Source: a virus
Taxonomy: Duplodnaviria; Caudoviricetes
DNA: 53,407 nt
Reading direction: 5' to 3' (one strand)
IMG/VR virus record: IMGVR_UViG_3300036859_000475
Location: 1 to 53,407 of that record
Position 1 is the stretch's first letter. Every line of letters starts with the position of its first letter. The notes beneath the pieces are model-generated. The model was not told where the DNA came from. It saw only the letters and a program-made list of their open reading frames with translations, and did no database searches. Shown in pieces: positions 32,340 through 53,407 of the stretch. A program made the position numbers and the translations under genes.

Positions 32340-32348
32340 CGCGACTTC

Positions 32349-32842: not shown

Positions 32843-33390
32843 GAGCGCTGCGCTCACGTCTGCGCGGCCAAGTCCGCCTAGGGCGAGCGGTCATCGTCGT
32901 GCTGGCCGCTGCCGCCGTGGCCCTGGGCTGGTTGGTGGGCTCGCAGACCTCTCGCGTCGGTCAGGTCGAGAACCAGGCCGAGCAGGGACGGCAGATGATC
33001 CGCGAGAACCGCGAGCGCATCGGAGGGCTGACGCGTGAACTCGGTCGAGCTGCCTCGATCGGCGAGCTGAGTCAGCTCATCACCGTCATCGAGCGCCTGA
33101 CCGGCGCGCAGGACGCAGGCAACCGGGAGGAGTTCGTTCCGTCCGGCGAGGCTGAGCCCAGTCCCTCGCCTGCGCGAACGGCGTTCCCTCGGCCCCGGCC
33201 CTCCCCGCCGCTGAACCCGCTTCCCGAGCCCACGCCATCCCCCGGCACCCTCAAGCCGATCCTGTGCGCGATGTTCCCGGACACGATGGCGCTGATCGGA
33301 GTGAACTGCCGCAGCGACACGTTCATCGTGTGTGACTTGGCGGGGCTCTCGTGCCCGGCTCCGCCCAGGCCTCCGTCCCCGCCGCGATGA
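32791..33390 (+). CDS. Membrane-anchored coiled-coil, Pro-rich lysis-associated protein
   Basis: Hydrophobic segment, coiled coil, Pro-rich tail; start uncertain. Confidence 0.6.
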   Translation: MAMCVLSADSRSGDDALRALRSRLRGQVRLGRAVIVVLAAAAVALGWLVGSQTSRVGQVENQAEQGRQMIRENRERIGGLTRELGRAASIGELSQLITVIERLTGAQDAGNREEFVPSGEAEPSPSPARTAFPRPRPSPPLNPLPEPTPSPGTLKPILCAMFPDTMALIGVNCRSDTFIVCDLAGLSCPAPPRPPSPPR

Positions 33391-33404
33391 ATTGAGGCAC
33401 CCCG

Positions 33405-33443
33405 GTCCTCCGCCGTCAGGTAACGGGCGGACGGACTCCCTTT
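33405..33443 (+). terminator. Hairpin at the end of the lysis block
   Basis: GTCCTCCGCCGT / ACGGGCGGACGGAC imperfect stem. Confidence 0.45.
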
Positions 33444-33448
33444 ACGGG

Positions 33449-33478
33449 TGTACCTACGCTATGTAAGATGTACCTACG
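33449..33478 (+). promoter_or_regulatory. Direct-repeat operator around a leaderless -10 box
   Basis: TGTACCTACG at 33449 and 33469; TAAGAT at 33464. Confidence 0.65.
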
Positions 33479-33639
33479 TGCCTAACTCACCGAAGACGCC
33501 CAGCCGCAATGTTCGCGTCCCTGATGACGTGTGGGATGCGGCCAAGACGAAGGCAGCCAACCGTGGCGAGAGTGTCACGGACGTCATCCTTCGCGCTCTT
33601 CGGAGGTACGTGAAGGAAGAGAGAGAGGATCAATCGTGA
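33478..33639 (+). CDS. Ribbon-helix-helix DNA-binding protein
   Basis: TPSRNVRVPDDVW...GESVTDVILRALRRYV. Confidence 0.85.
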   Translation: MPNSPKTPSRNVRVPDDVWDAAKTKAANRGESVTDVILRALRRYVKEEREDQS

Positions 33640-33799
33640 ACGGCATGGGCGGCTGTAGCTCAATCATCGCGATAGAGCGCCGACTTCCCCGGCCCGCTGG
33701 CAGGGCACAAGCAGGGGTTCTAGGTGGTCGGAGATGGGGTAGCCAGCTAATCCCCCAGCCGCCCATGTCCGTTGTGTCGCAGTCAGAGGACGTTTCCTG

Positions 33800-34054
33800 A
33801 TGGCCAGTCAGAAAACCGAGCGAGACCGTCTCTTGGACGTTGGATTCAAGGTACTCGATGACTTCAACGACGCGAACTGTCCTCACTGTGGCAGCGACGA
33901 TTGCTACCTCAATGACCCCACGACCAACGGATTTATCTGCGAGAACACCAACAAGCACATCCCGGCGGATGACGACTACCGGGCAATGGCTGCTCTACTG
34001 CTTGATGCCTGGCTCCCCATGCTCGGCGTCACATTACCAACGGACGCGAAATGA
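33800..34054 (+). CDS. Zn-ribbon hypothetical protein
   Basis: RBS AGAGG; CPHCGS. Confidence 0.6.
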   Translation: MASQKTERDRLLDVGFKVLDDFNDANCPHCGSDDCYLNDPTTNGFICENTNKHIPADDDYRAMAALLLDAWLPMLGVTLPTDAK

Positions 34055-34440
34055 CCCCTGTGCACATCTGCCCTGTCTGCTATCAAGAACCGGCTGTAGG
34101 CCACCATCCGCTATTCCATCGGATAGAAGAACGACTATCCGCTCTTGAACGGGAACTTGTTGCCCCAGAGTCGAAAGACCGGGTGCGCTGCAAGCTCTGT
34201 GGGTGGATCGGCTGGGCACATGCCGACGACCAATGCGAACGCTGCGACGTGGCCGGGGAGTTTGAGGCAGCGATGGATTCGTCTGTTGCCAAGGGACCAC
34301 CGAAAGCGCCAGATATGGTTGGCGGCTTCGAGGACACTCGGTCGGCGGGTACGGGCTCCGGTGATGGCGCCCCCGGAACGTCGAGAACCCCGCAGGGTCC
34401 CTTGTCAACGGACTCCGCGTCAACGGACGCGGAGGGATGA
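34051..34440 (+). CDS. Cys-rich hypothetical protein
   Basis: ATGA overlaps; three CxxC pairs. Confidence 0.55.
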   Translation: MTPVHICPVCYQEPAVGHHPLFHRIEERLSALERELVAPESKDRVRCKLCGWIGWAHADDQCERCDVAGEFEAAMDSSVAKGPPKAPDMVGGFEDTRSAGTGSGDGAPGTSRTPQGPLSTDSASTDAEG

Positions 34441-35390
34441 AGGTTGGCTCCCTCTTTTCGGGAATCGGAGGGCTCGACCTTGGGCTTGAGCGGGCCGGCA
34501 TGGAGATCGTCTGGCAGTGCGAGAGCGACCCCTATTGCCGCGCCGTCCTCCGAAAGCACTGGCCCCACATCGAACTCTTTGGCGACGTGCGGACCCTCTA
34601 CGCTCCCCGAAGGGTTGATCTCATCTGCGGCGGTTTCCCCTGCCAGCCAGTCAGCCAAGCTGGACGTCGACGAGCCCAGGCTGACGATCGTTGGCTCTGG
34701 CCCGAGATGGCCCGTGTTCTTCGGGACCTACGACCCCGCTATGTCCTTGTGGAAAATGTCCCAGGGCTCCTTGCTCGAGGAATGGGAGACGTCCTCGGAG
34801 ACCTGGCCTCCCTCGGGTTCGATGCAGAGTGGGAGAGCCTTCCGGTTGCCGCGTTTGGTGCCCCGCACTTACGAGACCGGGTGTTCATCTTCGGCTATCG
34901 GCCGCCCGAGACTGTTGGACGGCCCGGAAAGCAACGGCGGGTTTTGGCCGACACCGAGAGCGGTGGACAACGGCCAGATCAAGACAACCCGGACAGATCC
35001 TCGGAACAAAACCTCGAGTCCGTCTCTCAGCGAGGCAGCGCAGATGTGGCCTACTCCCAAGGCGAGCGCAGCGAACTACGGCCGACCGCGGGAGAGCGAC
35101 TGGGGGGATCTCCAAGCGGCCGTGTTGTGGCGCACACCCCAAGCGCGGGACGGGGACCAGAGGGGGCCGAGCTCGCCCGAGCGCAGAAAGGAGCAGGGAC
35201 ATTCGGTGTCCCTGCACGATCAGGTTGGTGGGCAACTGAACCCGACGTGGGTCGAGTGGCTCATGGGATTCCCTCTCGGGTGGACCGTCTTAGAGCCCTC
35301 GGAAACGCCGTCGTCCCGCAAGTCGCGGAATGGATAGGAAGACGAATCATGGCAGCGGACGAACGCTCATCGGAGCGGGAGGGGCGATGA
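34437..35390 (+). CDS. C5-cytosine DNA methyltransferase, main polypeptide
   Basis: Motifs I FSGIGG, IV GFPCQP, VI ENVPG, VIII RDRVFI, X RALGNAV. Confidence 0.93.
   Translation: MKVGSLFSGIGGLDLGLERAGMEIVWQCESDPYCRAVLRKHWPHIELFGDVRTLYAPRRVDLICGGFPCQPVSQAGRRRAQADDRWLWPEMARVLRDLRPRYVLVENVPGLLARGMGDVLGDLASLGFDAEWESLPVAAFGAPHLRDRVFIFGYRPPETVGRPGKQRRVLADTESGGQRPDQDNPDRSSEQNLESVSQRGSADVAYSQGERSELRPTAGERLGGSPSGRVVAHTPSAGRGPEGAELARAQKGAGTFGVPARSGWWATEPDVGRVAHGIPSRVDRLRALGNAVVPQVAEWIGRRIMAADERSSEREGR
34741..35337 (+). CDS. Overlapping +1-frame methyltransferase partner polypeptide (motif IX)
   Basis: WPTP repeats and LNPTWVEWLMGFPLGWT; start uncertain (frame open from 34444). Confidence 0.7.
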   Translation: MSLWKMSQGSLLEEWETSSETWPPSGSMQSGRAFRLPRLVPRTYETGCSSSAIGRPRLLDGPESNGGFWPTPRAVDNGQIKTTRTDPRNKTSSPSLSEAAQMWPTPKASAANYGRPRESDWGDLQAAVLWRTPQARDGDQRGPSSPERRKEQGHSVSLHDQVGGQLNPTWVEWLMGFPLGWTVLEPSETPSSRKSRNG

Positions 35391-38296: not shown

Positions 38297-38479
38297 CTAG
38301 AAGGGAGGCTCCTCGTCATCGGGAATCTCCATCAGCCCGAGGGCGAACTCCCTCATCTTGGCGAGGCATTCGTCGCCACAAAAGGTCATCGCACCCACCC
38401 GATGCGCGACAGGCCCCAGCTGCCCGCACGTCGCACATCGCGCCGGCTCTGGATCAAAAGTGATCGGGCTTCGCCTCAC
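38297..38479 (-). CDS. Small Zn-finger protein with acidic tail
   Basis: CATC...FCGDEC; ends DDEEPPF. Confidence 0.55.
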   Translation of the reverse strand: MRRSPITFDPEPARCATCGQLGPVAHRVGAMTFCGDECLAKMREFALGLMEIPDDEEPPF

Positions 38480-39650
38480 GCTCGGCGGCGAAGGCTTCGA
38501 GCCGGTCCGAGCACTTCCGAAGCGACGAGATCGCGAGGTCGCGCAGCGGCGAGGCGAAGCCCGTCAGCGCACCCATCTGCTCGTCGTCCAGGTCGAACTC
38601 GTCGGCCATGTCGGCGGCCATGAGCAGGGTGACCCGGCGCTCCTCGACGGGATCGCCGGACAGCTTCGCGTCCTGCTCGCTCGGCGCCCAGTCGGCCTGC
38701 GCAGCCGCGCGCAGCCGAGCGCCGAGCGTCTGCTCGACTGGCTCCCACTCCGGGTCCTCGGCGCGATGCAGCAAGTCGCGCAGCTCGTCCAGCCCGAGCT
38801 CCTTCGTGGAAGCCCTCGGCGCGATGGCCGAGCGCAGCTTGGCCTCGGCCGCGTCGCCCCATCGGGTGCGGCAGACCGTCCACAGCGCCCTGCGCGCCTG
38901 CTCCTCGGGCGTGAGTTCGTGGGCGGGCTCCGGTTCGGGCTGCTGCTGCGGGAGTGATTCTTCGGCAGGCTCGGGCTGCTGGCCTCCGACGTCGGCGGGC
39001 GCCACGATCGCGCCGTCGGTCAGCTCGTCGGCGGTGTAGCTGATCCCGGCACAGACGTCCTCGAACAGCGTGCCGACGAGCTCCGAGGTCGCGCGCGCGA
39101 CGAGCATGAATCGCGTGAACTTCTCCCACGCGAGCGGCGCGCCGTTCTGCGAGCGCGCGATGATCTCGCCGCGTTCGTTGCGAGCGCACAGCTTGGCCGT
39201 GATCGCATCGTCGATGGTGTAGGTCGCGCGGTCGTATTGACCGGTATCGACGCGCTTGCCCTCGACCACGGCTCGCTCGGCATTGCATTCCGCACGCACA
39301 ACGGCGATGTAGTGACCGCGCCGGCGCACGAGCGCGCGCATGAGCTCGGCCGAGAGGTTCGGCCGACCATCCACCACCTGAATCGATTGCAACGCTTGCA
39401 TCGGCCCGATGCCGAGTTCGCGCCCCGACAGGATGCACGCGAGGACCGCACCCGGCTTACCGCGCAATCCCCTCGGAACGAAATCGGTGTCGTTCACCTG
39501 ATTGGAGATCTGCGCGATGATGTTCCACTCGCCGCTCGACGGTGGGCCAAGCGTCGCCGGCGGCTTGGCCGCGAGCGCGGTGGTTTCCGGCTCGGGCTCC
39601 GGCTCAGTCTTGCGGTTCTTCATGTCCACGACCTCTGCCGTCTTGCTCAC
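38454..39650 (-). CDS. RecT-like single-strand annealing protein
   Basis: VPRGLRGKP, GRELGIGPMQALQSIQVVDGRP.LSAELMRALV, MLVARA, YTADEL. Confidence 0.8.
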   Translation of the reverse strand: MSKTAEVVDMKNRKTEPEPEPETTALAAKPPATLGPPSSGEWNIIAQISNQVNDTDFVPRGLRGKPGAVLACILSGRELGIGPMQALQSIQVVDGRPNLSAELMRALVRRRGHYIAVVRAECNAERAVVEGKRVDTGQYDRATYTIDDAITAKLCARNERGEIIARSQNGAPLAWEKFTRFMLVARATSELVGTLFEDVCAGISYTADELTDGAIVAPADVGGQQPEPAEESLPQQQPEPEPAHELTPEEQARRALWTVCRTRWGDAAEAKLRSAIAPRASTKELGLDELRDLLHRAEDPEWEPVEQTLGARLRAAAQADWAPSEQDAKLSGDPVEERRVTLLMAADMADEFDLDDEQMGALTGFASPLRDLAISSLRKCSDRLEAFAAEREAKPDHF

Positions 39651-39659: not shown

Positions 39660-40457
39660 TCATTGATTGATGGCGCGAACTGCCTCGAGCGCGAGGTTCA
39701 GGTGATCGACTAGGATGCAGTCTCCCCAGGCTTCGCTCGCGGCCTTGATGGCCTTCTCTAGCTGTTCGGCGATGCGCTCGGCCACCCGATCGGCTACGAG
39801 CGTGCGCTGGTGGGGCCTGACGCGCGACTGCCTCACCTCTACGACGTCCTCGTACCTGATGGTGCCGTTGGCTTGTAGCCGACGCGCTAGCTCGCGTTGC
39901 TGCTCTTCGTCGCAGCGCGCGGCAGCCTCGCCCGCCTTGGTGCCGATGCGGCCGTCCAGCCAGGCATTGCGGATCGGATTCGACAGCGACGCGAGGCGCA
40001 TCCGCTTGCGGATGGTCTTGAGCGGGATGCCGGTGTCGCGGGCGATCACCACCGCCGACGGCGTGCCCTCGGCCGTGCGCATGATCTCCTCGATGAGTTC
40101 GAGCTCGACCACCGGATTCGGCGAAGCGTGCACGTTGCCCGCCAGCGCTACCGCCGAATCGGTCAGCCCGAGGTTGCCGTCGACCAGCACGCGCGCCGGA
40201 ACCTCGCGGACGCCGACGTGGCGGGCGGCTCGCGTCCGGCGGCGCCCGTCGATGACCACGAACGACTTGCCGTCTCTCCTCAGCAGCACGGGCGTGAACA
40301 CGCCGTGGATCTCCACCGAGCGCAACATTCCCTCGTCCGGCGGCGAGCCCCAGTTCGCCTCGCGGATCAGCTTTACTGGGACGACGGCGTCGGCCCACTC
40401 GGGTGGCGGTCCGAGGTCGAGTCCTGGCTGCCGTGCCTCTTCCTGCTTGCTCGTCAT
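39660..40457 (-). CDS. ParB/Spo0J-like protein with HTH
   Basis: SV..HGV.TPVLL, VIDGRRRTRAA, IARDTG. Confidence 0.8.
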   Translation of the reverse strand: MTSKQEEARQPGLDLGPPPEWADAVVPVKLIREANWGSPPDEGMLRSVEIHGVFTPVLLRRDGKSFVVIDGRRRTRAARHVGVREVPARVLVDGNLGLTDSAVALAGNVHASPNPVVELELIEEIMRTAEGTPSAVVIARDTGIPLKTIRKRMRLASLSNPIRNAWLDGRIGTKAGEAAARCDEEQQRELARRLQANGTIRYEDVVEVRQSRVRPHQRTLVADRVAERIAEQLEKAIKAASEAWGDCILVDHLNLALEAVRAINQ

Positions 40458-40585
40458 CACCGCACCTCTCCTTCCTCGAAGACGTCCCGAAGCAACTCCC
40501 ACGCCTGCGTCACGAGCGCGCTCGTGACGACCACGAAGGTCGTCGGCAAGATCGCGAAGCGAAAAACCAGGTCGAGCCACCTCAT
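40457..40585 (-). CDS. Small membrane protein (42 aa)
   Basis: Translated by hand; overlaps both neighbours. Confidence 0.4.
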   Translation of the reverse strand: MRWLDLVFRFAILPTTFVVVTSALVTQAWELLRDVFEEGEVR

Positions 40586-42232: not shown

Positions 42233-42531
42233 TGGGCAAGCCCGTCCGGACCGACGAGTTCGGCTGGCGGTTGAAGACCATCCGGGAGCGCGAGCAGGTC
42301 GGATACGGGTCTGTGCAGCGGCGCTCGCGCGGCGTCTACCTCGCGCGATGCGCGGACGACGCGGGGAACTTCGACGAGTGCGACGCGTTCTCGACGCTGG
42401 CCGCTGCGAAGCGCTGGGTGAAGGAGTCCGGCGACGAGACGTGGACTTGGGGGCGCTGGGAACGCGACCCCGCGGCCGACGCCTGGTACTGCCAGTCGAC
42501 GTCCGTGATCGAGCGGGAGGTGGAAGCGTGA
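42232..42531 (+). CDS. Hypothetical protein
   Basis: Overlaps both neighbours. Confidence 0.55.
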   Translation: MGKPVRTDEFGWRLKTIREREQVGYGSVQRRSRGVYLARCADDAGNFDECDAFSTLAAAKRWVKESGDETWTWGRWERDPAADAWYCQSTSVIEREVEA

Positions 42532-43322
42532 CGACGACAGACAAGGCGAGCGCGCTGCTCGCCGAGCTGAAGGACGGCATCGAGCATGCCCTGAGCGAGG
42601 ACGGCTGGCGAGAATACCTGGCCGTCGGGGCCCGCTTTCATCGCTACTCGCTCAACAACGTGATCCTCATCCACACGCAGCGCCCGGACGCGACTCGCGT
42701 GGCGGGCTTTCGGTTGTGGCAATCGCTCGGGCGCCAGGTCCGCAAGGGGGAGAAGGGCATCGCCATCCTCGCCCCGGTCGTCCGCAAGGTCGAGGAGGAC
42801 TCGGGCGAGCAGTCTCGCGCCGTGGTCGGATTCCGGTGCGCCCACGTCTTCGACGTGGCGCAGACCGACGGAGAGCCGCTGCCGGACCCCGTCCTGCCGC
42901 AGGAACTCGACGGCGAGGCGCCGGCAGCGCTCGCGGAGTTAGAGAGGTTCGTCGGGGAGATCGGATTCACCCTTCGTCGCGGCGACGCCGGTGCCGCGAA
43001 CGGCTGGATGGACGCTCGCGAGAAGCTGATCCTGGTCAGCGACGCGCTCGATCCGGCCACGGCCTTCAAGACGCTGGTTCACGAAGTGGCGCACGCGCTG
43101 GTCCACGTCGACGCCGGTGTGGAGCATGGGTTGCAGGAGCTCGAGGCCGAGTCGTGCGCGTTCGTCGTCTGCAAGGCGCTCGGGCTGGACGCGTCGAGGT
43201 ATTCGTTTCGCTACCTGGCCTCGTGGAGCGGTGGCGATCCCGAGCAGGTGATGAAGGCGGGCGAGCGCGCGCTGCGCGCGGCCGACCGCATACTCGGCGC
43301 GCTCTCGAAGGAGGCGTCGTGA
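42528..43322 (+). CDS. ardC: ArdC-like antirestriction protein (ssDNA-binding plus HExxH domain)
   Basis: FHRYSLNN..LI..Q.PDAT.VAGF..W..LGRQVRKGEKGI.ILAP, VFDVAQTDG, TLVHEVAH, ELEAE. Confidence 0.85.
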   Translation: MTTTDKASALLAELKDGIEHALSEDGWREYLAVGARFHRYSLNNVILIHTQRPDATRVAGFRLWQSLGRQVRKGEKGIAILAPVVRKVEEDSGEQSRAVVGFRCAHVFDVAQTDGEPLPDPVLPQELDGEAPAALAELERFVGEIGFTLRRGDAGAANGWMDAREKLILVSDALDPATAFKTLVHEVAHALVHVDAGVEHGLQELEAESCAFVVCKALGLDASRYSFRYLASWSGGDPEQVMKAGERALRAADRILGALSKEAS

Positions 43323-43648
43323 GCGTCGTCTACCTCATCCACTTCGACGATCCCTATCCGCGGGACTCCCGGGGTTCGGTCCAGCACTACATCGGGTTCA
43401 GCGGGTTCGGGCGCGGCATGCTGCGCCGTCGACTGGGCTATCACGCGGCGGGCAGCGGCGCCCGGCTGATGGATGCCGTCCGGCGCGCGGGGATAGGTTG
43501 GCGCGTCGTGCGGCTGTGGTGGGGCGAGGGGCGCGAGTTCGAGCGCCGCCTGAAGCGGTGCAAGAAGGCCCGCGAATTCTGTCCCGTCTGCCGGGGCGAG
43601 CGCGTGCGCTTGCGCGCGCCGTATTGGGTCCAGGCGGCTGCGTCGTGA
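43319..43648 (+). CDS. GIY-YIG-like endonuclease
   Basis: VYLIHF...HYIGF...RL..H..GSGARL...ERRLK...CPVC. Confidence 0.7.
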   Translation: MSVVYLIHFDDPYPRDSRGSVQHYIGFSGFGRGMLRRRLGYHAAGSGARLMDAVRRAGIGWRVVRLWWGEGREFERRLKRCKKAREFCPVCRGERVRLRAPYWVQAAAS

Positions 43649-45332: not shown

Positions 45333-46117
45333 AGATCGACAAGGATGTCCGCTTCGCGACCGTCCCGGAATGGCTCATCTTCGCCGATGTGAGTGCCTAC
45401 GCCGTCCGAATATGGGCGGTGCTCGATCGCCGTTCGGACGGATCAACGGGGACGTGCGAGGTCTCTCTGTCGACCATCGCGAGATTAGGTCGATGTTCCG
45501 TCAATACAGTCAAGAAGGCACTTGTCGAGCTCGAAGCGTTAGGTGCCATCGATGTCGAGCGGGATCGGATGACTGCTTCGGGCGATCCAGACACGAATCG
45601 TTATCTACTTAGGACATCCGACCCATCATCACGTGATGGGGGTAGGTCAGATCGTGACCCACCCGGTGGGTCATCTGGTGATCCAGGGGTGGGTCACGAC
45701 GTGGCCCTAAAAGAACGAAAGCAAACCCCAAAAGCAAAACCCAAGGTTGGTTTAGGGTTTGCAGCTAAGACTTCTCAGCTACTTACGTTTTCGGCGCTCG
45801 AAGAAACGAGCGCCTTCTCCGACCTCGACGACGACGTCAAGGCTGAACTGCAGAAGATTCGGAAGCGACACCCCGACTTCCCCGTCGCGCAACTGGCCGA
45901 GGCCAAGTGGTGGAGGGAGATCGACGCACAATCCGAGCACCATGACGTGTTCTATCTCGATGAGTTGTGGCGTTACGTCGAGTGGTGGGCGCTTCAGCCG
46001 AGGGGATCGCGGCATCGCAACGTCAAGCGCGCGTTCGGGCGATGGTGGGCCAAGGAGATCTCGCGCAGCGAATGGAGGAGGAGGAATGGGCCGAAAGCGC
46101 AGCGGATCGAGCGTTAG
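45329..46117 (+). CDS. Replication initiator (N-terminal wHTH)
   Basis: FATVPEW, SLSTIA....S.NTVKKAL.ELE..G.I, TNRY; internal repeats. Confidence 0.75.
   Translation: MKIDKDVRFATVPEWLIFADVSAYAVRIWAVLDRRSDGSTGTCEVSLSTIARLGRCSVNTVKKALVELEALGAIDVERDRMTASGDPDTNRYLLRTSDPSSRDGGRSDRDPPGGSSGDPGVGHDVALKERKQTPKAKPKVGLGFAAKTSQLLTFSALEETSAFSDLDDDVKAELQKIRKRHPDFPVAQLAEAKWWREIDAQSEHHDVFYLDELWRYVEWWALQPRGSRHRNVKRAFGRWWAKEISRSEWRRRNGPKAQRIER
45641..45760. repeat. Putative replication origin: three iterons and an A-rich tract
   Basis: GGTRGGTCA-N5-TGRYCC at 45641, 45665 and 45688, followed by an A-rich run. Confidence 0.65.
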
Positions 46118-46655
46118 TGACGTCCGCACGGTCTACGAGCTGAGTCACGTGCGCCGATTCGCGCCCGGGGTAGAGATCGCCAATCACAGCACGGCCTACG
46201 ACGAGGCGGAGCGCTTCGAGGCCGAAGCCGACTACGAGGCCCTGGCCCGGCAGGCCCGAAGCGAGGTCGGGACGGAGTGCGCGGCGAGCACCGTCGGGGG
46301 GCAGAAGGCACGCGGGATCGTGGATCGCATCGTCATCGAGCTTCGATCGCGCAAGGTGGGCGCGTGGCTCTCGCCATCGCGGCCGATGTCCTGCGAGGTG
46401 CTGCTGGACGAATCGAGGCTCGCGCCGAGGGCGAGCGCGGTTCGAGACGGATTGCTTGCCGTGCCGGCCGGGAGGCGGGGAGCGCTCTTCGCCGAGGCTC
46501 TGGTCGCCGTCGGTACGCCTGGCCCCGTGGGGCGAGAATCGCAGCACGGACGGGTCTGCGCGAAGCACCAGCGATGGGTCGGGCGAGGCCAGCTGCACGA
46601 CCCATGCTGGTCTCACGTCTGGCGCGCGGAAGATCCTTCGCGCGAGGGAGGATAA
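46086..46655 (+). CDS. Hypothetical protein
   Basis: RBS GGAGGAGG. Confidence 0.55.
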   Translation: MGRKRSGSSVSDVRTVYELSHVRRFAPGVEIANHSTAYDEAERFEAEADYEALARQARSEVGTECAASTVGGQKARGIVDRIVIELRSRKVGAWLSPSRPMSCEVLLDESRLAPRASAVRDGLLAVPAGRRGALFAEALVAVGTPGPVGRESQHGRVCAKHQRWVGRGQLHDPCWSHVWRAEDPSREGG

Positions 46656-46658
46656 GGC

Positions 46659-46997
46659 ATGACGCTGCATGATCCCGAGCTAATGAGCGGCTCGACTACT
46701 GAAATGGCACTCATCGCCATCGCTAATGAACGGCGGGATCAAGACCGACGTAAGGCCGAGGGGTGCTTCGAGTTCACTTGTGCCGACAGCGCCCTGACTA
46801 ACGCCGAAAAGCTAACCATCTTGGTCGAGGAGGTCGGCGAGGTCGCGCGAGAGGTTCTGACACAGGACGGCCGGCGACTCGCCCGAGACACCGAAGGCAC
46901 GGTTCGAGCGCTTCACAAGGAAGTCATTCAGGTCGCGGCTGTCGCTACGGCATGGGTTGAAGCGCTGAGCTATGAGCTTGCCGCTGATTCGAGATGA
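46659..46997 (+). CDS. MazG-like nucleotide pyrophosphohydrolase
   Basis: ER.DQ, ILVEEVGEVA, EVIQVAAVA.AWVE. Confidence 0.8.
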   Translation: MTLHDPELMSGSTTEMALIAIANERRDQDRRKAEGCFEFTCADSALTNAEKLTILVEEVGEVAREVLTQDGRRLARDTEGTVRALHKEVIQVAAVATAWVEALSYELAADSR

Positions 46998-47350
46998 CGC
47001 ATCCGGCGCTGACGGAGCGCAGCTTTCAAGACCAGGTGATCGAGCTCGCGCGCCTGCTCGGCTACGAGCGGATCGCGCACTTTCGTCCCGGCCAGACGCG
47101 AGGCGGTCGGTGGGCCACGCAGATGACGGGGGACCCTGGCTTTCCCGACCTCGTGCTTGTGCGGCCGGGGCGCGTCGTCGACGGCGCCCCGGCCAACGGG
47201 CGAATCGCCTTCATCGAGTGCAAGGTGGGGAAGAACAAGCCGACCTCTGAGCAGGAGGCGTGGCTGGACGCGCTGAGGTGGTCACCCGGCATCGTCGCCC
47301 GAGTCGCCTATCCGGAAGACTTGGACGAGCTCGCGGAATTGCTTCGATGA
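46994..47350 (+). CDS. VRR-NUC domain nuclease (resolvase-like)
   Basis: TE..FQ, GFPDLVL, FIECK...PT.EQ.AWL. Confidence 0.85.
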   Translation: MTHPALTERSFQDQVIELARLLGYERIAHFRPGQTRGGRWATQMTGDPGFPDLVLVRPGRVVDGAPANGRIAFIECKVGKNKPTSEQEAWLDALRWSPGIVARVAYPEDLDELAELLR

Positions 47351-47901
47351 CCGACCTCGCGATCCCCGGCCAGTTTTCGCCGACGTCTCTCGAACTCGAG
47401 CCCGGCTTGCCGTACGAGCGATGGATAGCGATAGGCCAGACGCTGCGCACTATCGAGCACGGCATCCAGTTTTGGCTAGGCGATTGGTACAACTACGGCG
47501 AGGCATCCTACGGGGATAAGGCGGCCCAGGCCGTGGAGATCGGCGCCGAGGCAGGATACGAGGGCTCGACGGTGCAGACCTACGCCTGGGTGGCTGGCCG
47601 CATCGAACCTTCGAGGCGTCTCGAAAAGCTGGCGTTCTCCCACCACCAGTCGGTCGCGTCGCTGGAACCCGACGAGCAGGACGAGCTGCTGCGCAAGGCC
47701 GACGAGAACGACTGGGCCGTCCGGGATACGCGCGAGGCCGCGCAGGAGCTCAAGGCCGCGACGGGGCGGGCCGAGGCGCGCCCGGCGTGGTCGCTCGAGG
47801 AGGCGATCCGCGAGGCGCTCAAGCCGTGGACGTTCGTCGACCAGCTCGACGCGGCGACTGCGGCCATCATGGGCGTCCTTCGCGATCGGAATCTCGCGTG
47901 A
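47347..47901 (+). CDS. LmbU-like DNA-binding protein
   Basis: FWLGDW..YGE..YG, T...YAWVA.....RR...L.FSHH..VA.L...EQD..L. Confidence 0.7.
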   Translation: MTDLAIPGQFSPTSLELEPGLPYERWIAIGQTLRTIEHGIQFWLGDWYNYGEASYGDKAAQAVEIGAEAGYEGSTVQTYAWVAGRIEPSRRLEKLAFSHHQSVASLEPDEQDELLRKADENDWAVRDTREAAQELKAATGRAEARPAWSLEEAIREALKPWTFVDQLDAATAAIMGVLRDRNLA

Positions 47902-48557
47902 GCACGATGAAGATCGAGCACGTGGCGATCGACCGCTTGAAGCGTCACCCGCGCAACTACCGCGATCACCCCGAGGAGCAGCTGGCGCACATCGAGGCGA
48001 GCCTGCGCGAGCATGGCTTCTACCGTAACGTCGTGGTCGCTCGGGACGACACGATCTTGGGCGGGCACGGGGTGGTCCAGGCGGCCAAGCGCATCGGCAT
48101 GGACCAGCTCCCGGTGCTGCGGCTGGACCTGGACCCCGACGACCCGGCCGCGCTGCGCATCCTGGTGGGCGACAACGAACTCGGGAGGTTCGCCGACGAC
48201 GACGATCGCGAGCTGACCGAGCTGCTGCGCGAGTTGGCGACGAGGGACGCGCTCGGACTCATGGGCACGGGGTACGACGCGCAGCAGCTGGCGGCGCTGC
48301 TGTTGGCGACGCGCACGCGCGCCGAGATAACCGGCTTCGACTCCGCGGCGGAATGGGTCGGCATGCCGGACTACGAGGTCTCGGGCGAGTCGTTCTCGGT
48401 GGTCGTCAACTTCGCAGGCGAGGATGCGCGGGCGAAGTTTATCCAGGCCAACGGCTTAGTCGTCTTCAAGTCCCAGGGGACGTACACCGCGTGGTGGCCT
48501 CCGCGAGAGCGCGACGATCGCCAGTCGGTGCGGTGGGAGTCCGGGGCGGCGGAGTGA
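47898..48557 (+). CDS. ParB/Srx N-terminal domain protein
   Basis: L.RHPRNYR.H...Q...I..SL.E.GF, ILGGHG, GDN; C-terminal EWVGMPDY...WWP. Confidence 0.85.
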   Translation: MSTMKIEHVAIDRLKRHPRNYRDHPEEQLAHIEASLREHGFYRNVVVARDDTILGGHGVVQAAKRIGMDQLPVLRLDLDPDDPAALRILVGDNELGRFADDDDRELTELLRELATRDALGLMGTGYDAQQLAALLLATRTRAEITGFDSAAEWVGMPDYEVSGESFSVVVNFAGEDARAKFIQANGLVVFKSQGTYTAWWPPRERDDRQSVRWESGAAE

Positions 48558-49432
48558 GCGACCTGGCCCCGCGCTACCCGATCTACATTCCGTCCAAGGG
48601 GCGCTCGGACGCGCTGCTGGCGGCGCGGATGTTCGACGCCGACGCGGTGCCGTACCACGTCGTGGTGGAGCCGCAGGAGGCCGAGGCTTACGCGGCCGTC
48701 GTCGGAGGCGAGCGCGTGCTGTGCCTGCCGGAGTCGGGCCGAGGCCTGGTCTACTCGCGCACGTGGATCAAGCGCCACTCGGTCGAGCGCGGCGAGGCGC
48801 GGCACTGGCAGTTCGACGACGACGTGACGCAGATGATGCGGCTGCACCTGAACCACAGGCTGCCGTGCGACGCGGCGATCGCGCTGCGCGCCGCCGAGGA
48901 CTTCGTCGATCGATACGAGAACGTCGCGCTGCCCAGCTTTAACAGCGAGTTCTTCTTGCCGACGACGGGGGCTTTCTCGCAGAAGTGGCCGCCGTTCTTC
49001 CTCAACTTCCGCTGCTATACGTGCTTCCTGATGCTCAACGCGATCCCGAACGAGTGGCGCGGTCGATACAACGAGGACACCGACATGACCCTGCAGGTGC
49101 TGGCCGACGGCTGGTGCACGATCTTGTTCAACGCGTTCTGCATGCGCACGCCGGCGACGATGACGCACCGCGGCGGCCAGACCGACATCTACGAGGGCGA
49201 CGGCCGGCGCGAGATGGCGCGAGAGCTCGAGCGCCGGTGGCCGAGGGTGGTCAGCGTCAAGCGAAAGTTCGGGCGCCCGCAGCACCACGTGGACTGGAAG
49301 AAATTCGACACGCCGCTGCGGCCGAAGCCCGGTGTGGTCATCCCGGACGGGGACCCGTACGGCCTCGCGCTCGCGGCCAAGCGCGAAGTGAGGAGCGCGG
49401 CCCTGCGCGAGCTGCTGGAGCGGAGCCAGTGA
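48554..49432 (+). CDS. TET-associated (TAGT/GREB1-like) glycosyltransferase
   Basis: YPIYIPSKGR, VVEPQE...Y, SR.WI, HWQFDDD, WRGRYNEDTD..LQVL.DG.CT, GG.TD.Y, HHVDW. Confidence 0.75.
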   Translation: MSDLAPRYPIYIPSKGRSDALLAARMFDADAVPYHVVVEPQEAEAYAAVVGGERVLCLPESGRGLVYSRTWIKRHSVERGEARHWQFDDDVTQMMRLHLNHRLPCDAAIALRAAEDFVDRYENVALPSFNSEFFLPTTGAFSQKWPPFFLNFRCYTCFLMLNAIPNEWRGRYNEDTDMTLQVLADGWCTILFNAFCMRTPATMTHRGGQTDIYEGDGRREMARELERRWPRVVSVKRKFGRPQHHVDWKKFDTPLRPKPGVVIPDGDPYGLALAAKREVRSAALRELLERSQ

Positions 49433-50220
49433 TCGCCGACCTCGCCGTCGTCGTCCCCTGGGTGGACGAGTGGCAGCGCGACGAGTTCATGCGGGCGTGG
49501 CGGCTATCGGAGATCCCGCCCTGGTTGTTCATGCTCCAGGACGAACATCGGCAGGGCTGCGCCGCCACGAAGAACCGCGGCGTGGCGATGGCCGTCGAGG
49601 CCGGCGCCGAGGTCGTGGTCGTGCTGGACGACGACTGTTATCCGTGCGAGCCCGGCGACTCGCTGGAATGGCTGGCCGAGCTTCATGCGCTGGCGCTGGC
49701 ACCACAGCCAGTCCAGCTCTTCGAGGTGGTGACCGACCCGCCGTCGCGCGGGACTCCCTATGGCTCGCTCGAGGTCGAGATGCCGGTCGCCGCGAGCATG
49801 GGCTTCTGGACGGGCTCGGGCGACTACTGCGCCGTTCGGCAGCTGGCGTTGGGGATCGACATGACGTTCTCGCGCCGCGCGATCCACGGCCGCTACTTCC
49901 CGCTGAGCGGCATGAACCTGGCCTTTCGGCCGCGCGACTGGGAGCCGTGGTGCCGCTTCGTAGACGTGCCGCGGTTCGACGACATCTGGATGGGCTGGAT
50001 GTGGCAGCGCGAGGCGTATCGCCGCGGGTACTGCTTCAACCTGGCAGGCCCGCTGGTGCGGCACGCTCGGCAGAGCAACGCGTGGAGAAACCTGCAAGTC
50101 GAGGCCCGTCACCTCGAAACCAACGAGGACCTGTGGCGCCAGATCGCCACCCACCCGGACCCGAGCTACGAAGGGCTCTGCGCCTTGCTCCCGGCCAGCC
50201 CGGGCGGGAGCGACCGATGA
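49429..50220 (+). CDS. RGP/GT75-like protein (UDP-arabinopyranose mutase family)
   Basis: LDDDCYP, RGTPY, S.G.W....DY.A..QL, YFPLSGMNLAF, RFDDIW.GW. Confidence 0.72.
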   Translation: MIADLAVVVPWVDEWQRDEFMRAWRLSEIPPWLFMLQDEHRQGCAATKNRGVAMAVEAGAEVVVVLDDDCYPCEPGDSLEWLAELHALALAPQPVQLFEVVTDPPSRGTPYGSLEVEMPVAASMGFWTGSGDYCAVRQLALGIDMTFSRRAIHGRYFPLSGMNLAFRPRDWEPWCRFVDVPRFDDIWMGWMWQREAYRRGYCFNLAGPLVRHARQSNAWRNLQVEARHLETNEDLWRQIATHPDPSYEGLCALLPASPGGSDR

Positions 50221-50664
50221 TCCCCGCGCGGGCGACGCGCCCGTACCTGCTCGTGGGCGAGGCCCCGGGGCAGGGAGGCGGCGCTGCGTTGGCCGGCGCG
50301 ATCGGCAAGCGGCTGGCCCACCTGCTCGGCGCGGAGCCGGCCGAGCACTTCGACCTGTGGCAACTTGCTCGACCAGTACCCGGGCTCGCTCGGGAAGGGG
50401 ACTTATTTCCCCGAGAGGCAGGGCCTGGCGGCGGCGAAGGCCGCAGTCGGCCGCTTCGCTTCGTGGCGCGGGGTCGTGCTGCTCGGGCGGCGCGTCGGCG
50501 ACGCCTTCGGGCTGCGAAGCCAGCTGCTCTTCCAGTGGACGCCTTTGGGCGACGGCCGAGCGGCGATCATGCCGCACCCCTCCGGCTTGAATCGCTGGTG
50601 AAACGACGCTTCCAACGCCGAGCGCGCGAGGCGATTCCTGCGGGGGCTGCGGGCGCCGTCGTGA
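50217..50664 (+). pseudogene. Uracil-DNA glycosylase superfamily protein with a frameshift and an internal stop
   Basis: LLVGEAPG; extra base near 50361; then VVLLGRRV..AF and PHPSG.NRW*ND (TGA at 50599); natural stop overlaps the next GTG. Confidence 0.7.
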
Positions 50665-51077
50665 AGTGCTCGTTCTGTTTGCGCCCGGCCGTCACCGACG
50701 AGTTCGAGGCGGAGCGCTTCGAATTCATGGGCGAGTCGCGCTTTCGGTGCTGCGCGATGCACGCCCACATGATCGCCCAGGCGGTGCTCTCGGAGGTGGG
50801 GATGCTCTTGAAGTGGAGGCACGAACTGATCGAGGCCGAAGCCCGACCGACCGTCGCAGACGCGGATCTGATCTTGGCAGCGAACGCGCGACACGTGAAG
50901 GAGCGCGACGAGGCCCGCGCGCTGGCGGACCAACTGGCCGAATTGCTCCCCGAGATCGCAGGGCTCCTGAAAGAGGTCGTCGAAGGGCGCGACCCCGGAG
51001 TGATGAGACTCAGTCAGGTGCTCGTCCAGGCCACCAGGACGCTGACCGCCTACGAAGCGCGAGACTGGAAAGCGTGA
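50661..51077 (+). CDS. Hypothetical protein
   Basis: CSFC...CCAMH then coiled coil; GTGA overlap. Confidence 0.55.
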   Translation: MKCSFCLRPAVTDEFEAERFEFMGESRFRCCAMHAHMIAQAVLSEVGMLLKWRHELIEAEARPTVADADLILAANARHVKERDEARALADQLAELLPEIAGLLKEVVEGRDPGVMRLSQVLVQATRTLTAYEARDWKA

Positions 51078-51340
51078 TGTACGCGGACTCGCTCGTCGAG
51101 TTGCTACCTGGTGAGATGTTCGGTTACCCGGGTTCGTGCGGCTACTGGGTTGGCGACTTTGAGGACGGGATCACCGAGCTTGGCCTGCGCGCCTTCGCGT
51201 TCGAGGTCGAGGAGAACGACGCGGCTTGGCCTTACTTCACAGAGGCGTACTGGAACCCGCCGACGGAAGTGCCGTGTCCCCGCTGCGATGGGAGTGGGAA
51301 GGTGTCGGCGGGGGTCGCGAAGGAAATTATTTCTGCGTGA
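51077..51340 (+). CDS. Hypothetical protein
   Basis: TGATG overlap; CPRCDGSG. Confidence 0.55.
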   Translation: MYADSLVELLPGEMFGYPGSCGYWVGDFEDGITELGLRAFAFEVEENDAAWPYFTEAYWNPPTEVPCPRCDGSGKVSAGVAKEIISA

Positions 51341-51386
51341 TCAAGCCGCGACGGCAAGCGGTGCGACCCTTCGTAGACTTGGGAGC

Positions 51387-52073
51387 GTGACCGAAGGACT
51401 GCCCGCGGGGCGCCTCACCGAGCCGTGGGAGCGCCAGCGAGGCGAGACGGCCAAGGCCTTCGCGGCCTTCGTCGCCTACAGGGAGCAGTCCCCCGACAAG
51501 AGGACGCTCGCGGCCGCGGCGAGGGCGACGTACGGCGAGCGGGGCGTCCGTAAGAACGGGCAGGTCATCGGAGTGATGCAGGAGTGGATCCGCCGGCACG
51601 AGTGGGCGGCGCGCGCGGCGGCGTGGGACGCGCACCTAGACGACCTGCGCCGGCGCGAGGACGAGAAGGCCGTCGTCGAGATGCAGCAGCGCCACCTTCG
51701 CGAAGCGGAGCTGATCCAGCGCACGCTGCTCTCGCCGGCGATGGCGCTGGCCAATCGGCTGCGCGCCGATCCGCAGGCCCAGTACCTGTTCGAAGGCACG
51801 GAGCTGCCCGCGCTCGTCCGGCTGGCCGACCGCGCCGGCCGCGGCTATGACCGCCTAGCGCGCTTCGAGCGCCTCGTGCGCGGCATCGCCGACCGCCTCG
51901 AGGTCACGGGCGCCGGCGGGGGCCCGATCGAGGTCTCCATGACGGTCGAGCAGGCATGCCTGGTCCTGGCGCCGTACCTGGGCGTCGAGCCGGCCGACGT
52001 GCCCCAGGCGATCGCCGACAGGCGACGGCAGCTCCGGGAGGCCGAGGGGGAGGAGGAGGCCTCGGCGGTGTAA
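51387..52073 (+). CDS. terS: Putative terminase small subunit
   Basis: PWERQ.GET.KAF.AF..Y, W..RA.AWD, C-terminal LEVTGAGGGPI; TAGACT 7 nt upstream of GTG. Confidence 0.65.
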   Translation: MTEGLPAGRLTEPWERQRGETAKAFAAFVAYREQSPDKRTLAAAARATYGERGVRKNGQVIGVMQEWIRRHEWAARAAAWDAHLDDLRRREDEKAVVEMQQRHLREAELIQRTLLSPAMALANRLRADPQAQYLFEGTELPALVRLADRAGRGYDRLARFERLVRGIADRLEVTGAGGGPIEVSMTVEQACLVLAPYLGVEPADVPQAIADRRRQLREAEGEEEASAV

Positions 52074-52079
52074 TCGGGG

Positions 52080-52108
52080 TTGACACGGTGCCGCGTGTCA
52101 GGTAAGAT
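52080..52108 (+). promoter_or_regulatory. Strong promoter with overlapping palindromic operator
   Basis: TTGACA-17 nt-TAAGAT; TGACACG-N6-CGTGTCA at 52081-52100. Confidence 0.8.
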
Positions 52109-52115
52109 TACAGGC

Positions 52116-52280
52116 ATGAGCACCAACCAAACCCCGAGCCCCGAGAGGGGAGAAAGGAGGGTCCAGATGGGGACCTTCCAAGTGGCCTGCACCTGCGGGT
52201 GCGGCCAGGCAGTCGAGGCCCGCGACGAGGGCTTCAGCGCCACGACCGTCGGAGATCGCCGCCTGCGACAAGCGGCGTGA
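52116..52280 (+). CDS. Small hypothetical protein
   Basis: ATG 7 nt after the -10 box; alternative internal ATG with its own RBS; CTCGCG. Confidence 0.5.
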   Translation: MSTNQTPSPERGERRVQMGTFQVACTCGCGQAVEARDEGFSATTVGDRRLRQAA

Positions 52281-52287
52281 GGCGGGG

Positions 52288-52614
52288 ATGGTCAGCGTGA
52301 CCATCCGAAAGTCGGTTGCCTACAAGGCCGCCGACGAGCTCCACCGGAGGACCGGCGAGCGGGACATCCCGCTCACCATCGAGCGCGCCGCCGGCGCGAT
52401 CTTCGACGCGGTGCTGGCCAAGGCCGAGGACGTCGCGCACGACGCGATCGACGCCCCGGATCCCGACGACACCGACGACGAGCTCCGCGACGAGGTCATG
52501 GAGCTCGTCTTCGAGGTCAACGAGCGGATCCTGGCAGCGGTGCGGGACCGCCTCGTCGACTACGTCTGCGACGCCATCCCCATCCTGGAGCGGCCGACCG
52601 CCGACAAGCGATGA
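52288..52614 (+). CDS. Acidic hypothetical protein
   Basis: Asp/Glu-rich; typical codon usage. Confidence 0.65.
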   Translation: MVSVTIRKSVAYKAADELHRRTGERDIPLTIERAAGAIFDAVLAKAEDVAHDAIDAPDPDDTDDELRDEVMELVFEVNERILAAVRDRLVDYVCDAIPILERPTADKR

Positions 52615-52772
52615 CGCGCTCTACGCCATACACGAACGGGATGAGCGGCTGGGTGATCCGCGATGAGATCCAGCGCGCAGGGATGACCCGGCCGCACGTC
52701 AGCTGGTGGTACGGCCCGAACCACGGGCGGCGGGACAACGCCGACAGAGTGCGCGCTCCTCGGGCTTCGTGA
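52611..52772 (+). CDS. Small hypothetical protein
   Basis: Translated by hand; ATGA overlap. Confidence 0.35.
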   Translation: MTRSTPYTNGMSGWVIRDEIQRAGMTRPHVSWWYGPNHGRRDNADRVRAPRAS

Positions 52773-52802
52773 GAACCTCGAGATCCGACGAGAGGGGTTG
52801 GG

Positions 52803-52973
52803 ATGAGCAAGGTCATTCGCATCGACGAGGAGGTTCAGGCGGCCGTACTCGAGAAGAAGCACGACCTCGAACGAGCGCGCCGGCGGCCGGTCACCATGGG
52901 CGAGGCACTACGCGCAGCTGTTGAGGAGGCAACGGGCGAGGCGATCGGTCGTCCAGTCAAGGATCGCAAGTGA
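52803..52973 (+). CDS. Small RHH-like protein (56 aa)
   Basis: Translated by hand: MSKVIRIDEEV...TMGEALR. Confidence 0.55.
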   Translation: MSKVIRIDEEVQAAVLEKKHDLERARRRPVTMGEALRAAVEEATGEAIGRPVKDRK

Positions 52974-53176
52974 AGCCGTACGGGATCGCGGAGATCGCAC
53001 GGGCGCTCGACGCGCGTCCGGAGACGGTCGCACAGTGGCGCCGGCGCGGCAAGCTCCCGACGCCAACCGCCGAGCTCGCCATGGGTCCGGTATGGACCGC
53101 CGAGGAGATCGAGCCGTGGATCGACCTAGTCGCCAAGCTGGACGACGTTGGCCGACGGACGCTGACGCACACATGA
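52970..53176 (+). CDS. AlpA/excisionase-like HTH protein
   Basis: GIAEIA..L.....TV.QWRRRGKLP.P......PVW...EI..W. Confidence 0.8.
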   Translation: MKPYGIAEIARALDARPETVAQWRRRGKLPTPTAELAMGPVWTAEEIEPWIDLVAKLDDVGRRTLTHT

Positions 53177-53407
53177 GCGAGACGCCGACGGTCTACCTGG
53201 CACAGTTCGTCGTGCCGGCGGGGATCGTGGCGTGGTGCACACGTTGCGGCGCCGACGTCTACGTGCACGAGATCCAGCCAGGCTCCGATGTTTGTCGAGG
53301 CACGATGTTCGTCCGGACCTACGGGATGCTGCGGGCACGCCCGTGCGGTCACGAATGCAGCCTCGGAGGGGAAGGGTTGCCACTGATTCGGTGGCAGGCC
53401 CTGCAGC
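53173..53407 (+). CDS. Hypothetical protein spanning the circular junction (continues to stop at 224)
   Basis: MSETPTVYL...WCTRCG in frame with ORF 6..224; overlaps the terL start. Confidence 0.7.
   Translation, partial: MSETPTVYLAQFVVPAGIVAWCTRCGADVYVHEIQPGSDVCRGTMFVRTYGMLRARPCGHECSLGGEGLPLIRWQALQ
53222..53407. repeat. Terminal direct repeat, right copy
   Basis: Matches 1-186 with one mismatch. Confidence 0.97.

Follow-up and report, generated by a model that had tools for sequence, protein, structure and literature searches.

The window analysed here is the whole of IMG/VR virus record IMGVR_UViG_3300036859_000475, a stretch of 53,407 bp labelled linear and given a CheckV completeness estimate of 72%. 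At 47907-50220 it carries three intact overlapping genes coding for a ParB-like protein, a glycosyltransferase of the TAGT family and a GT75-like protein, with the terminase small subunit gene terS further downstream, and this cassette, a candidate module for the glycosylation of the phage's own DNA, is the subject of the present work. The features of the region are as follows (aa, amino acids).

47907-48557, plus strand: ParB_N-X protein, 216 aa (phrog_620, 8.2e-29; alignment of 37 sequences)
48318-48554, plus strand: domain X, residues 138-216 of the ParB-like protein, with no Pfam family
48554-49432, plus strand: TAGT-family GT-A glycosyltransferase, 292 aa (PF20691, 3.8e-35; phrog_842, 1.5e-43)
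49429-50220, plus strand: GT75-like protein, 263 aa (PF03214, 4.5e-5)
50217-50661, plus strand: UDG-superfamily pseudogene, from an alignment with six intact relatives
50217 to about 50360: piece A of the UDG-like gene, followed by a 1-nt insertion at about 50361
50362-50598: piece B, in the next frame, ending at an in-frame TGA at 50599-50601
50602-50661: piece C, 20 further homologous codons past the TGA
50661-51077 and 51074-51340, plus strand: two small open reading frames (138 and 88 aa) between the UDG-like pseudogene and terS
51387-52073, plus strand: terS, terminase small subunit (phrog_6299, 8.6e-12)

Starts and stops of adjacent genes overlap by 4 nt at 48554, 49429 and 50217, as seen both in the translations and in the sequence. 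An initial annotation of this DNA had described four translationally coupled genes, then two small open reading frames and terS; the overlaps and the downstream order are as described, although the fourth, UDG-like gene is not intact, so the set consists of three genes and a pseudogene. The two small open reading frames are without a Pfam or PHROG match, and tblastn did not find them in 90 related loci; they show no conservation with the module and serve as context only. A promoter and terminator scan of 46000-53407 found no site within 46000-52073, which is weak evidence that the cassette is one transcription unit.

Scans of IMG/VR gave 10 loci with a GT75-like gene and 464 with a TAGT gene, 80 of which were kept, making 89 distinct loci whose genes were counted with iterated hidden Markov models (HMMs). 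A TAGT gene is present in 88 of them, by construction of the search, and a GT75-like gene in 17, in 16 cases downstream of the TAGT gene and in most directly after it; further genes lie between the two in loci L014, L015 and L022. Many unrelated viral contigs repeat this order of genes, so the arrangement is more than chance. What flanks the module varies between loci (several Pfam types of terminase and portal, as well as DnaB, ClpP and radical SAM) and the module therefore moves between phage backbones, while nothing else except packaging genes recurs in the neighbourhoods of ±8 kb. This neighbourhood survey agrees with the earlier view of a recurrent module beside packaging genes. When the window was compared with 14 near-complete relatives (GC content 32-69%) by BLAST-level clustering of open reading frames of at least 80 aa, in which distant homologues would be missed, the sole protein cluster common to all 15 genomes was X/ParB-TAGT, the next commonest being the portal, in 5. 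Since only this cluster is common to all 15, the module looks self-sufficient.

Tandem TAGT paralogues, at least two per locus, are found in 14 of the 89 loci. One case is locus L015, where the array at 7250-11730 consists of four tandem TAGT paralogues, followed by a GT75-like gene and then a second ParB_N-X gene, and suggests stepwise oligosaccharide assembly. At locus L008 no TAGT gene was detected on the ±8 kb taken from a 69-kb record, which has terminal repeats, and the GT75-like gene at 7998-8801 is split into two frames (7998-8216 and 8235-8801).

The ParB-like protein consists of an N-terminal ParB/Srx-like domain (residues ~1-135) followed by domain X. No HTH_ParB match was found in it with Pfam, and it does not class with the partition-type ParB proteins. 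Among the related loci, what the 'ParB' profile detects splits into a full-length match, comprising ParB_N and a C-terminal stretch of ~70 residues (42/89 loci), X as a stand-alone open reading frame of 80-100 aa immediately upstream of the TAGT gene (28/89), and X fused to the TAGT N-terminus (8/89). The ParB-domain gene that had been counted as a part of the module is indeed present, but the constant element is its C-terminal domain X, which stands before TAGT or is fused to it in 78 of the 88 TAGT loci, rather than ParB_N, which is found in 42 of these. In the ten TAGT loci without a visible X, the sequence is cut by the contig end (four) or there is a ParB with a different tail (six, one of them on the opposite strand).

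The consensus of X reads W-x-G-M-P-E-[FY] ... V-x-F ... ED ... F ... G-Q ... T-x-S-x-W-x-P. Four stand-alone copies gave no credible Pfam match and no PHROGs match other than a marginal one (0.0098) for one copy, and a search of the ESM Atlas with X returned unnamed viral clusters only. A profile search with X among 1.84 billion proteins nevertheless retrieved 3790 cluster representatives (50% identity) at E<=0.001. Cultured phages carry it too, either as an X-TAGT fusion (Aeromonas phage 65, Vibrio phage 1.076.O and, twice, Kuja) or as a separate open reading frame (henriette 12B8). We did not find X described as a constant partner of TAGT in the literature on phage TAGT and ParB proteins, supplementary lists aside.

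The AlphaFold model of X alone is weak (pLDDT 77.5, pTM 0.45) and shows one helix and a hairpin. When X (residues 138-216) was predicted in complex with the TAGT enzyme, the median score was 0.81 versus 0.25 for the best of three controls; in a benchmark, that mark was reached by solved complexes in 58 of 80 cases and by mismatched pairs in 2 of 110, a calibration which is approximate, since our own alignments were used. The runs shared at least 76% of contacts, with partner pLDDT of at least 74, and X is predicted to pack beside the strand following the TAGT DxD motif. The predicted interface joins TAGT residues 96-106 and 263-284 to X residues 146-160 and 200-214. The prediction supports X being a putative docking domain for TAGT.

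The TAGT enzyme matches PF20691 along the full profile (positions 1-205 of 205) at 122.1 bits versus a cut-off of 27.5 (123.1 bits when searched in six frames) and has the motifs R17, DDD 88-90 and E174-D175, of which R17, D88, D89 and D175 do not vary across an alignment of 87 sequences. The R...DDD...ED motifs have been described for phage GT-A enzymes, which transfer sugars to 5-hydroxymethylcytosine (5hmC) in DNA (bioRxiv 10.1101/2023.12.21.572611, accessible part), and according to the accessible part of PMC13216743 the family PF20691 takes in the T2/T6 enzyme that adds glucose to glucosyl-5hmC DNA. Seventy-seven longer homologues, 30-56% identical to the window TAGT, were surveyed for extra domains. 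DNA_pol_A is present in 20 of them, UDG in two (one of which also has a 3'-5' exonuclease and PolA), ParB_N in one and an SNF2/helicase domain in one, and domains of the sugar-tailoring kind are FkbM methyltransferase (five), other SAM methyltransferase (four), radical SAM (two), sulfotransferase (one) and GNAT (one). X, TAGT and DNA polymerase A even form a single frame of 1077 aa in locus L074 (7674-10904), as do X, TAGT and UDG, with 503 aa, in locus L041 (7767-9275). Because relatives of the TAGT enzyme are fused to DNA polymerase A, UDG, SNF2 helicase and ParB_N, DNA is its most likely substrate, as the initial annotation had supposed; we did not find the polymerase, UDG and helicase fusions used as an argument for a DNA substrate in the literature. 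That DNA is glycosylated, and at which atom, is an inference.

To look for enzymes that could prepare an acceptor in DNA, the whole record was searched in six frames with Pfam profiles, and no match at E<=1 was obtained for Tet_JBP (PF12851), Thymidylat_synt (PF00303), 2OG-FeII_Oxy_3 (PF13640), 2OG-FeII_Oxy_2 (PF13532) or, other polymerase families not having been searched, DNA_pol_A. As positive controls, the Tet_JBP search finds Nonlabens phage P12024L (2.8e-29) and the Thymidylat_synt search finds Vibrio phages henriette and Kuja and Aeromonas phage 65. The absence of TET/JBP and hydroxymethylase genes noted in the initial annotation is therefore borne out, and the profile search for 2OG-Fe(II) folds, a check already named at that time, gave no match to any of the three profiles used; the reported absence of a DNA polymerase holds for family A. 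Profile searches were also made in 50 of the 89 related records, the longest contigs being chosen, 20 of which are at least 90% complete. Tet_JBP, Thymidylat_synt, ThyX and TGT were each found in 0/50 of them (0/20 of the near-complete ones) and a C5 methylase in 5/50 (2/20). ThyX and TGT/DpdA were thus dropped as alternative acceptor routes. The C5 methyltransferase gene noted elsewhere in the genome is there (34437-35390; PF00145, 1.2e-42), but it was given up as a pathway partner, being present in just five of the 50 relatives. Cultured Vibrio phage 1.076.O has no TET or thymidylate-synthase match either.

Comparison of both ends of the record with a script showed that 1-186 equals 53222-53407 except for one mismatch, at position 59, so the record is probably a complete genome of 53,221 bp, circular or with terminal redundancy, despite its labels of linear and 72%. 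With this end overlap of 186 nt, the gene absences probably apply to a whole genome. A small open reading frame that runs off the 3' end of the record resumes at its 5' end.

The GT75-like protein has a PDB match to MtdL at 0.005, and a profile of 12 GT75-like relatives matches UDP-arabinopyranose mutase 8cid (9.3e-7) and MtdL entries (2e-5). Its DDD 67-69 aligns with MtdL D109-111, D132 with D195, R182 and D185 (in RFDDIW) with R257 and D260, and H212 and R214 with H287 and R289, whereas MtdL Gln229 is not matched. Residues invariant in the 12 relatives are D67/D69, S106-R107-G108-T109-P110-Y111, D132, R182, D184-D185, H212 and R214, the middle residue of the DDD motif being D or G. The S-R-G-T-P-Y segment at 106-111 resembles a self-glycosylated arginine motif, which in plants we take to be R-G-Y-P-F, although the HMMER alignment does not pair it unambiguously with MtdL R159. 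The roles of the MtdL residues (a metal site of DxD and His, Arg and Asp at the sugar site, R159 as the self-glycosylated residue) are those given in the accessible part of PMC9937993. The protein is like the GT75 mutases treated there (plant UAM/RGP, MtdL, Hyg20) in its DxD and in having counterparts of MtdL Asp195, Arg257, Asp260, His287 and Arg289, and unlike them in being ~100 residues shorter, below the Pfam cut-off and encoded by a phage right after TAGT.

The GT75-like family comprises 670 proteins at E<=1e-5, all unnamed, and for most of the 120 relatives listed a PF03214 match had been precomputed. A tblastn search of phage records with the protein retrieved one uncultured jumbo phage only, the gene being near-absent from cultured phages. 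It is probable that the protein is either a Mn2+-dependent nucleoside diphosphate (NDP)-pyranose/furanose mutase or a self-glycosylating glycosyltransferase, and its simplest role would be that of a mutase feeding a furanose donor to TAGT, with a second transferase as the alternative. The earlier suggestion that it supplies an unusual sugar is reasonable, since the catalytic residues of NDP-pyranose mutases are kept. There is also a functional precedent for such donor feeding, because in the Pootjesviridae (Rhizobium phage RL38J1) a UDP-galactopyranose mutase (UGM) was proposed to supply the furanose donor for DNA glycosylation (PMC13326640, accessible part); unlike the window protein, that mutase is of the UGM rather than the GT75 family, and the acceptor is 5-hydroxycytosine (5hoC), made via a thymidylate-synthase homologue. 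We did not find a link of GT75 to phage DNA modification in the literature on the reversibly glycosylated polypeptide family in phages, and the cassette is the first context known to us for a phage GT75 enzyme.

As to the UDG-like gene, its in-frame TGA occupies a position at which each of the six intact relatives carries W, F or Y. The stretch 49400-51400 recurs with 0 differences, at a depth of 20.9, in an independent contig of what is possibly the source sample, and a second study supplied a 235-nt contig that agrees, again with 0 differences, over 50380-50614 and thus over the TGA; the coverage from run X2 had gaps, the frameshift site among them, and carries no weight either way. Because independent contigs reproduce the lesions, they are treated as real, and the gene is a pseudogene in this phage. 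The family assignment comes from the intact relatives, all six of which are matched by Pfam UDG (PF03167; best 5.7e-8), and from the AlphaFold model of the relative in locus L020 (pLDDT 85.4, pTM 0.83), for which 48 matches at E<=0.001 were obtained in the PDB, TDG and family-4 UDG ranking first and UdgX and MUG being among them. Six of the 89 related loci carry a UDG-like gene, which is an optional accessory in the relatives and has decayed here, and so it can no longer be regarded as a working part of the system.

Taken together, it is about equally probable as improbable, in our estimate, that 47907-50220 is a self-contained mobile module that would glycosylate the phage's own DNA after replication and before or during packaging, the GT75-like enzyme probably supplying a furanose donor. 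In such a scheme, the GT75-like enzyme would take an NDP-sugar from the host and convert the pyranose to a furanose donor with the metal bound by DxD and His and with Arg107, and the TAGT GT-A enzyme would dock on domain X of the ParB-like protein, the ParB_N half of which may hold or activate it on double-stranded DNA, in the way known for a phage thymine dioxygenase and its ParB homologue. The TAGT enzyme would then transfer the sugar to DNA. The acceptor would be a canonical DNA atom or the product of an unrecognised enzyme rather than a base from any known phage route, because no TET/JBP, ThyA-type, ThyX-type or TGT gene was found here or in the relatives, and incorporation of modified nucleotides is discounted because the phage is without a family-A polymerase.

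Several observations weigh against glycosylation of DNA by the module. To our knowledge, every characterised DNA glycosyltransferase needs a pre-made hydroxyl (5hmC, 5-hydroxymethyluracil (5hmU) or 5hoC), which counts here since no known route to one is encoded. The Pfam ParB_N match of the ParB-like protein (6.3e-4, 20.2 bits) lies below the cut-off of 26.3, and the protein reads GGHG at residues 52-55, where partition ParBs presumably carry the GERR arginine patch. The PF03214 (RGP) match of the GT75-like protein, at 23.2 bits, is 0.6 under the cut-off of 23.8, and a counterpart of MtdL Asp87 is not evident in its alignment. Thirty of the 50 relatives searched are less than 90% complete. The module lies amid head and packaging genes, a position also fitting a virion-protein target, and in Vibrio phage 1.076.O (locus L093, 5692-6861) the X-TAGT fusion is even located between the portal gene and a MuF-like head morphogenesis gene. 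Finally, the eukaryotic TAGT relative GREB1 glycosylates a protein, as stated in the accessible part of PMC7968844.

The boldest form of the proposal, which we think unlikely, is that X-TAGT glycosylates canonical DNA directly, for example at an exocyclic amine or a carbonyl oxygen of a base, with no pre-installed hydroxyl and with a furanose from the GT75 mutase. If true, DNA modification would gain a new chemical class and the two genes would be a plug-in anti-restriction module carried by thousands of phages.

Rather unlikely is a protein as the target of the module's glycosyltransferases, be it a virion or packaging protein or the X or ParB-like protein itself, by analogy with the capsid glycosylation of mycobacteriophages or with GREB1. 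Across many phage backgrounds its neighbours are terS, terL, portal or MuF genes, X carries a conserved T-x-S motif and, as a domain, is predicted to lie against the strand after the TAGT DxD, and the second cluster, of methyltransferase, GT2-like and GT-B genes, which follows the capsid gene may mean that the phage glycosylates its virion; GT75 enzymes, moreover, self-glycosylate an arginine (PMC9937993, accessible part). Under this explanation, however, the fusions to DNA polymerase A, UDG, SNF2 helicase and ParB_N are hard to account for, the four-gene set of locus L020 is located among replication and not head genes, and there is no structural protein common to the 15 genomes compared.

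It is less probable again that DNA is glycosylated on ordinary 5hmU, 5hmC or 5hoC made by an enzyme that escaped recognition, such as a divergent 5mYOX, an oxygenase of another class or a host enzyme. The window TAGT has the active-site motif RGRYNEDTD in common with its counterparts in Aeromonas phage 65 and Vibrio phage Kuja; these enzymes belong to the same TAGT clade, and both phages encode thymidylate-synthase homologues. PF12851, moreover, misses a minority of phage 5mYOXs, since among the contigs that phage-specific 5mYOX profiles retrieve, thousands are without a PF12851 annotation (PMC13229309, accessible part). Several open reading frames of the window, of 109-184 aa, are also without a family (46149-46655, 47347-47901, 43319-43648 and 20053-20541), and the tail genes at 20715-31060 were not scanned; the frame 47347-47901 is blank in Pfam and PHROGs except for a weak HTH_ParB match at 0.015. 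On the other hand, PF12851, PF13640 and PF13532 yielded no candidate at E<=1 in six frames, the two largest Pfam-unassigned frames are the head protease and the RecT-like protein, and the remaining ones are small compared with the 290-aa 5mYOX frame of P12024L. Neither the 15 near-complete genomes, with X/ParB-TAGT as their only common cluster, nor the ±8 kb neighbourhoods, where only packaging genes recur, offer a recurrent hydroxylase candidate.

It is improbable that the cassette is no more than a leftover, decaying or idle, of a fuller pathway and is carried without an acceptor. The two inactivating lesions in the adjacent UDG-like gene and the lack of an acceptor-making gene among those found in the window would fit it, but the three other genes are intact with all invariant catalytic residues, the 4-nt coupling overlaps are retained, and the hydroxylase-free layout across unrelated phages (0/50 with a hydroxylase) argues for a functional unit. 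Modification of a host envelope glycan with a GT75-made furanose donor, as in lysogenic conversion or superinfection exclusion, is highly improbable, for although the phage has temperate-type genes (partition-type ParB, RecT-like, ArdC-like) and furanose sugars are common in actinobacterial cell walls, nothing in the enzymes suggests that they associate with membranes, the domain fusions indicate DNA enzymes, and the carrier phages, with GC contents of 32-69%, must have hosts with very different envelopes.

With glycosylation of DNA as the preferred reading, the cassette can be set beside known systems. Phage post-replicative hypermodification clusters of 5mYOX (TET), C5 methyltransferase and GT-A genes were reportedly described by Burke in 2021 (PMC8256090) and are also treated by Pyle et al. 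(bioRxiv 10.1101/2023.12.21.572611). The cassette is like them in its GT-A enzyme of the JGT/TAGT kind with R...DDD...ED, in its ParB-like, terminase and sugar-tailoring neighbours and in its presumed action on the DNA polymer, and unlike them in that no 5mYOX was found here or in the 50 relatives and the C5 methyltransferase lies 13 kb off. The TAGT of the TET-linked Nonlabens phage P12024L has no X and is just 25% identical to that of the window. The T2/T6 beta-glucosyl-HMC-alpha-glucosyltransferase belongs to the same Pfam family, PF20691, but T-even phages obtain 5hmC via a thymidylate-synthase homologue and the first glucose by an alpha- or beta-glucosyltransferase, none of which is in the window, and T2 and T6 were not retrieved by tblastn with the window TAGT clade.

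A further likeness is to the ParB-dependent thymine dioxygenases of PMC13229309, in the accessible part of which an HTH-less phage ParB homologue stands beside a DNA-modifying enzyme near the terminase, activates the T-dioxygenase on double-stranded DNA and is needed for that activity; in the window, by contrast, the partner is a glycosyltransferase and the constant element is X, a domain that can also stand alone or be joined to TAGT. The cassette resembles both the 5mYOX/GT-A pathways and the ParB-activated T-dioxygenase and yet, judged by profile searches, lacks the dioxygenase or hydroxymethylase that defines them. A related gene order (ParB-like, TAGT, terS, terL, portal) is found in Lactobacillus phage phi jlb1 (NC_024206; jlb1_024 and jlb1_025; locus L150, 4271-5846), a temperate phage whose complete 38-kb genome gave no match for TET or thymidylate synthase. 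It differs from the window in that the HMM sees no X in its ParB and there is no GT75 gene, and its TAGT is distant, with ~25% identity to the Aeromonas enzyme.

The initial annotation had proposed a new system without TET. The absence of TET stands, while the novelty is weaker, since hydroxylase-free glycosyltransferase contigs have already been published: in the accessible part of bioRxiv 10.1101/2023.12.21.572611, ~65% of ~25,000 phage glycosyltransferase contigs are without a neighbouring 5mYOX or ThyS, and ParB, terminase and polymerase neighbours of phage glycosyltransferases are listed. A solitary TAGT was likewise reported in 288 of 753 phage genomes (PMC13216743, accessible part).

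Cultured carriers, namely Lactobacillus phage phi jlb1 and Vibrio phage 1.076.O, make the question testable. In all phage DNA glycosylations known to us, the sugar is put on a pyrimidine that owes its hydroxyl to a thymidylate-synthase homologue or a TET-like dioxygenase. With the cassette, either some enzyme that prepares the acceptor has so far gone unrecognised or there is a new way of glycosylating DNA, and both outcomes bear on phage counter-defence, type IV restriction, glycosylase-based defences and the sequencing and engineering of environmental phages. The idea of a ParB-type activator would also be extended from dioxygenases to glycosyltransferases.

The remainder of the genome was laid out from our own calling of open reading frames together with Pfam and PHROGs matches, as follows.

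221-1747: terL
2398-4620: portal-MuF
4620-6446: head protease
7235-8581: capsid
9294-9899: Methyltransf_24 methyltransferase, directly 3' of the capsid gene
9925-10662: weak GT2-like protein
10858-12060: GT-B glycosyltransferase (phrog_7162, 2e-28)
up to ~31 kb: tail genes
31060-31797: amidase
34437-35390: C5 methyltransferase, as given above
38454-39650, minus strand: RecT-like annealing protein
39660-40460, minus strand: true ParB (ParB_N and HTH_ParB), beside the RecT-like gene
between the true ParB gene and the cassette: early genes (DUF2958, ArdC-like, HNH, HTH_36, VRR-NUC)

The source virus is read as an actinophage because its capsid protein matches those of Gordonia and Brevibacterium phages, at 46-52% identity. 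A blastn search with 47300-52100 gave no match among 50,697 phage records, and a bacterial genome collection gave 12 matches, all of them contigs of metagenome-assembled genomes from many phyla and offering no host clue for the window TAGT clade. The cassette region is also present in a soil metagenome run.

Glycosylation of virion (capsid) proteins occurs in some mycobacteriophages and actinophages, and the methyltransferase, GT2-like and GT-B genes at 9294-12060 form a second sugar cassette that is possibly devoted to it. No integrase was noticed among the scanned open reading frames, no search having been aimed at one, and the phage might persist as a plasmid-like prophage. The ArdC-like protein (42528-43322), with an ArdC N-terminal domain and a weak metallopeptidase match, is a candidate anti-restriction gene product. 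A 354-aa frame at 14582-15646 without a family match contains many imperfect repeats of the A-Q-x-T-E-x-D-x-A-Q-x-V type. Four stretches of 0.4-1.2 kb each (13389-14459, 16899-18153, 31797-32899 and 33390-33800) were left without a convincing gene by the codon-usage caller. The GC content along the window is 62-72%, with dips around 16-18 kb and 32-36 kb.

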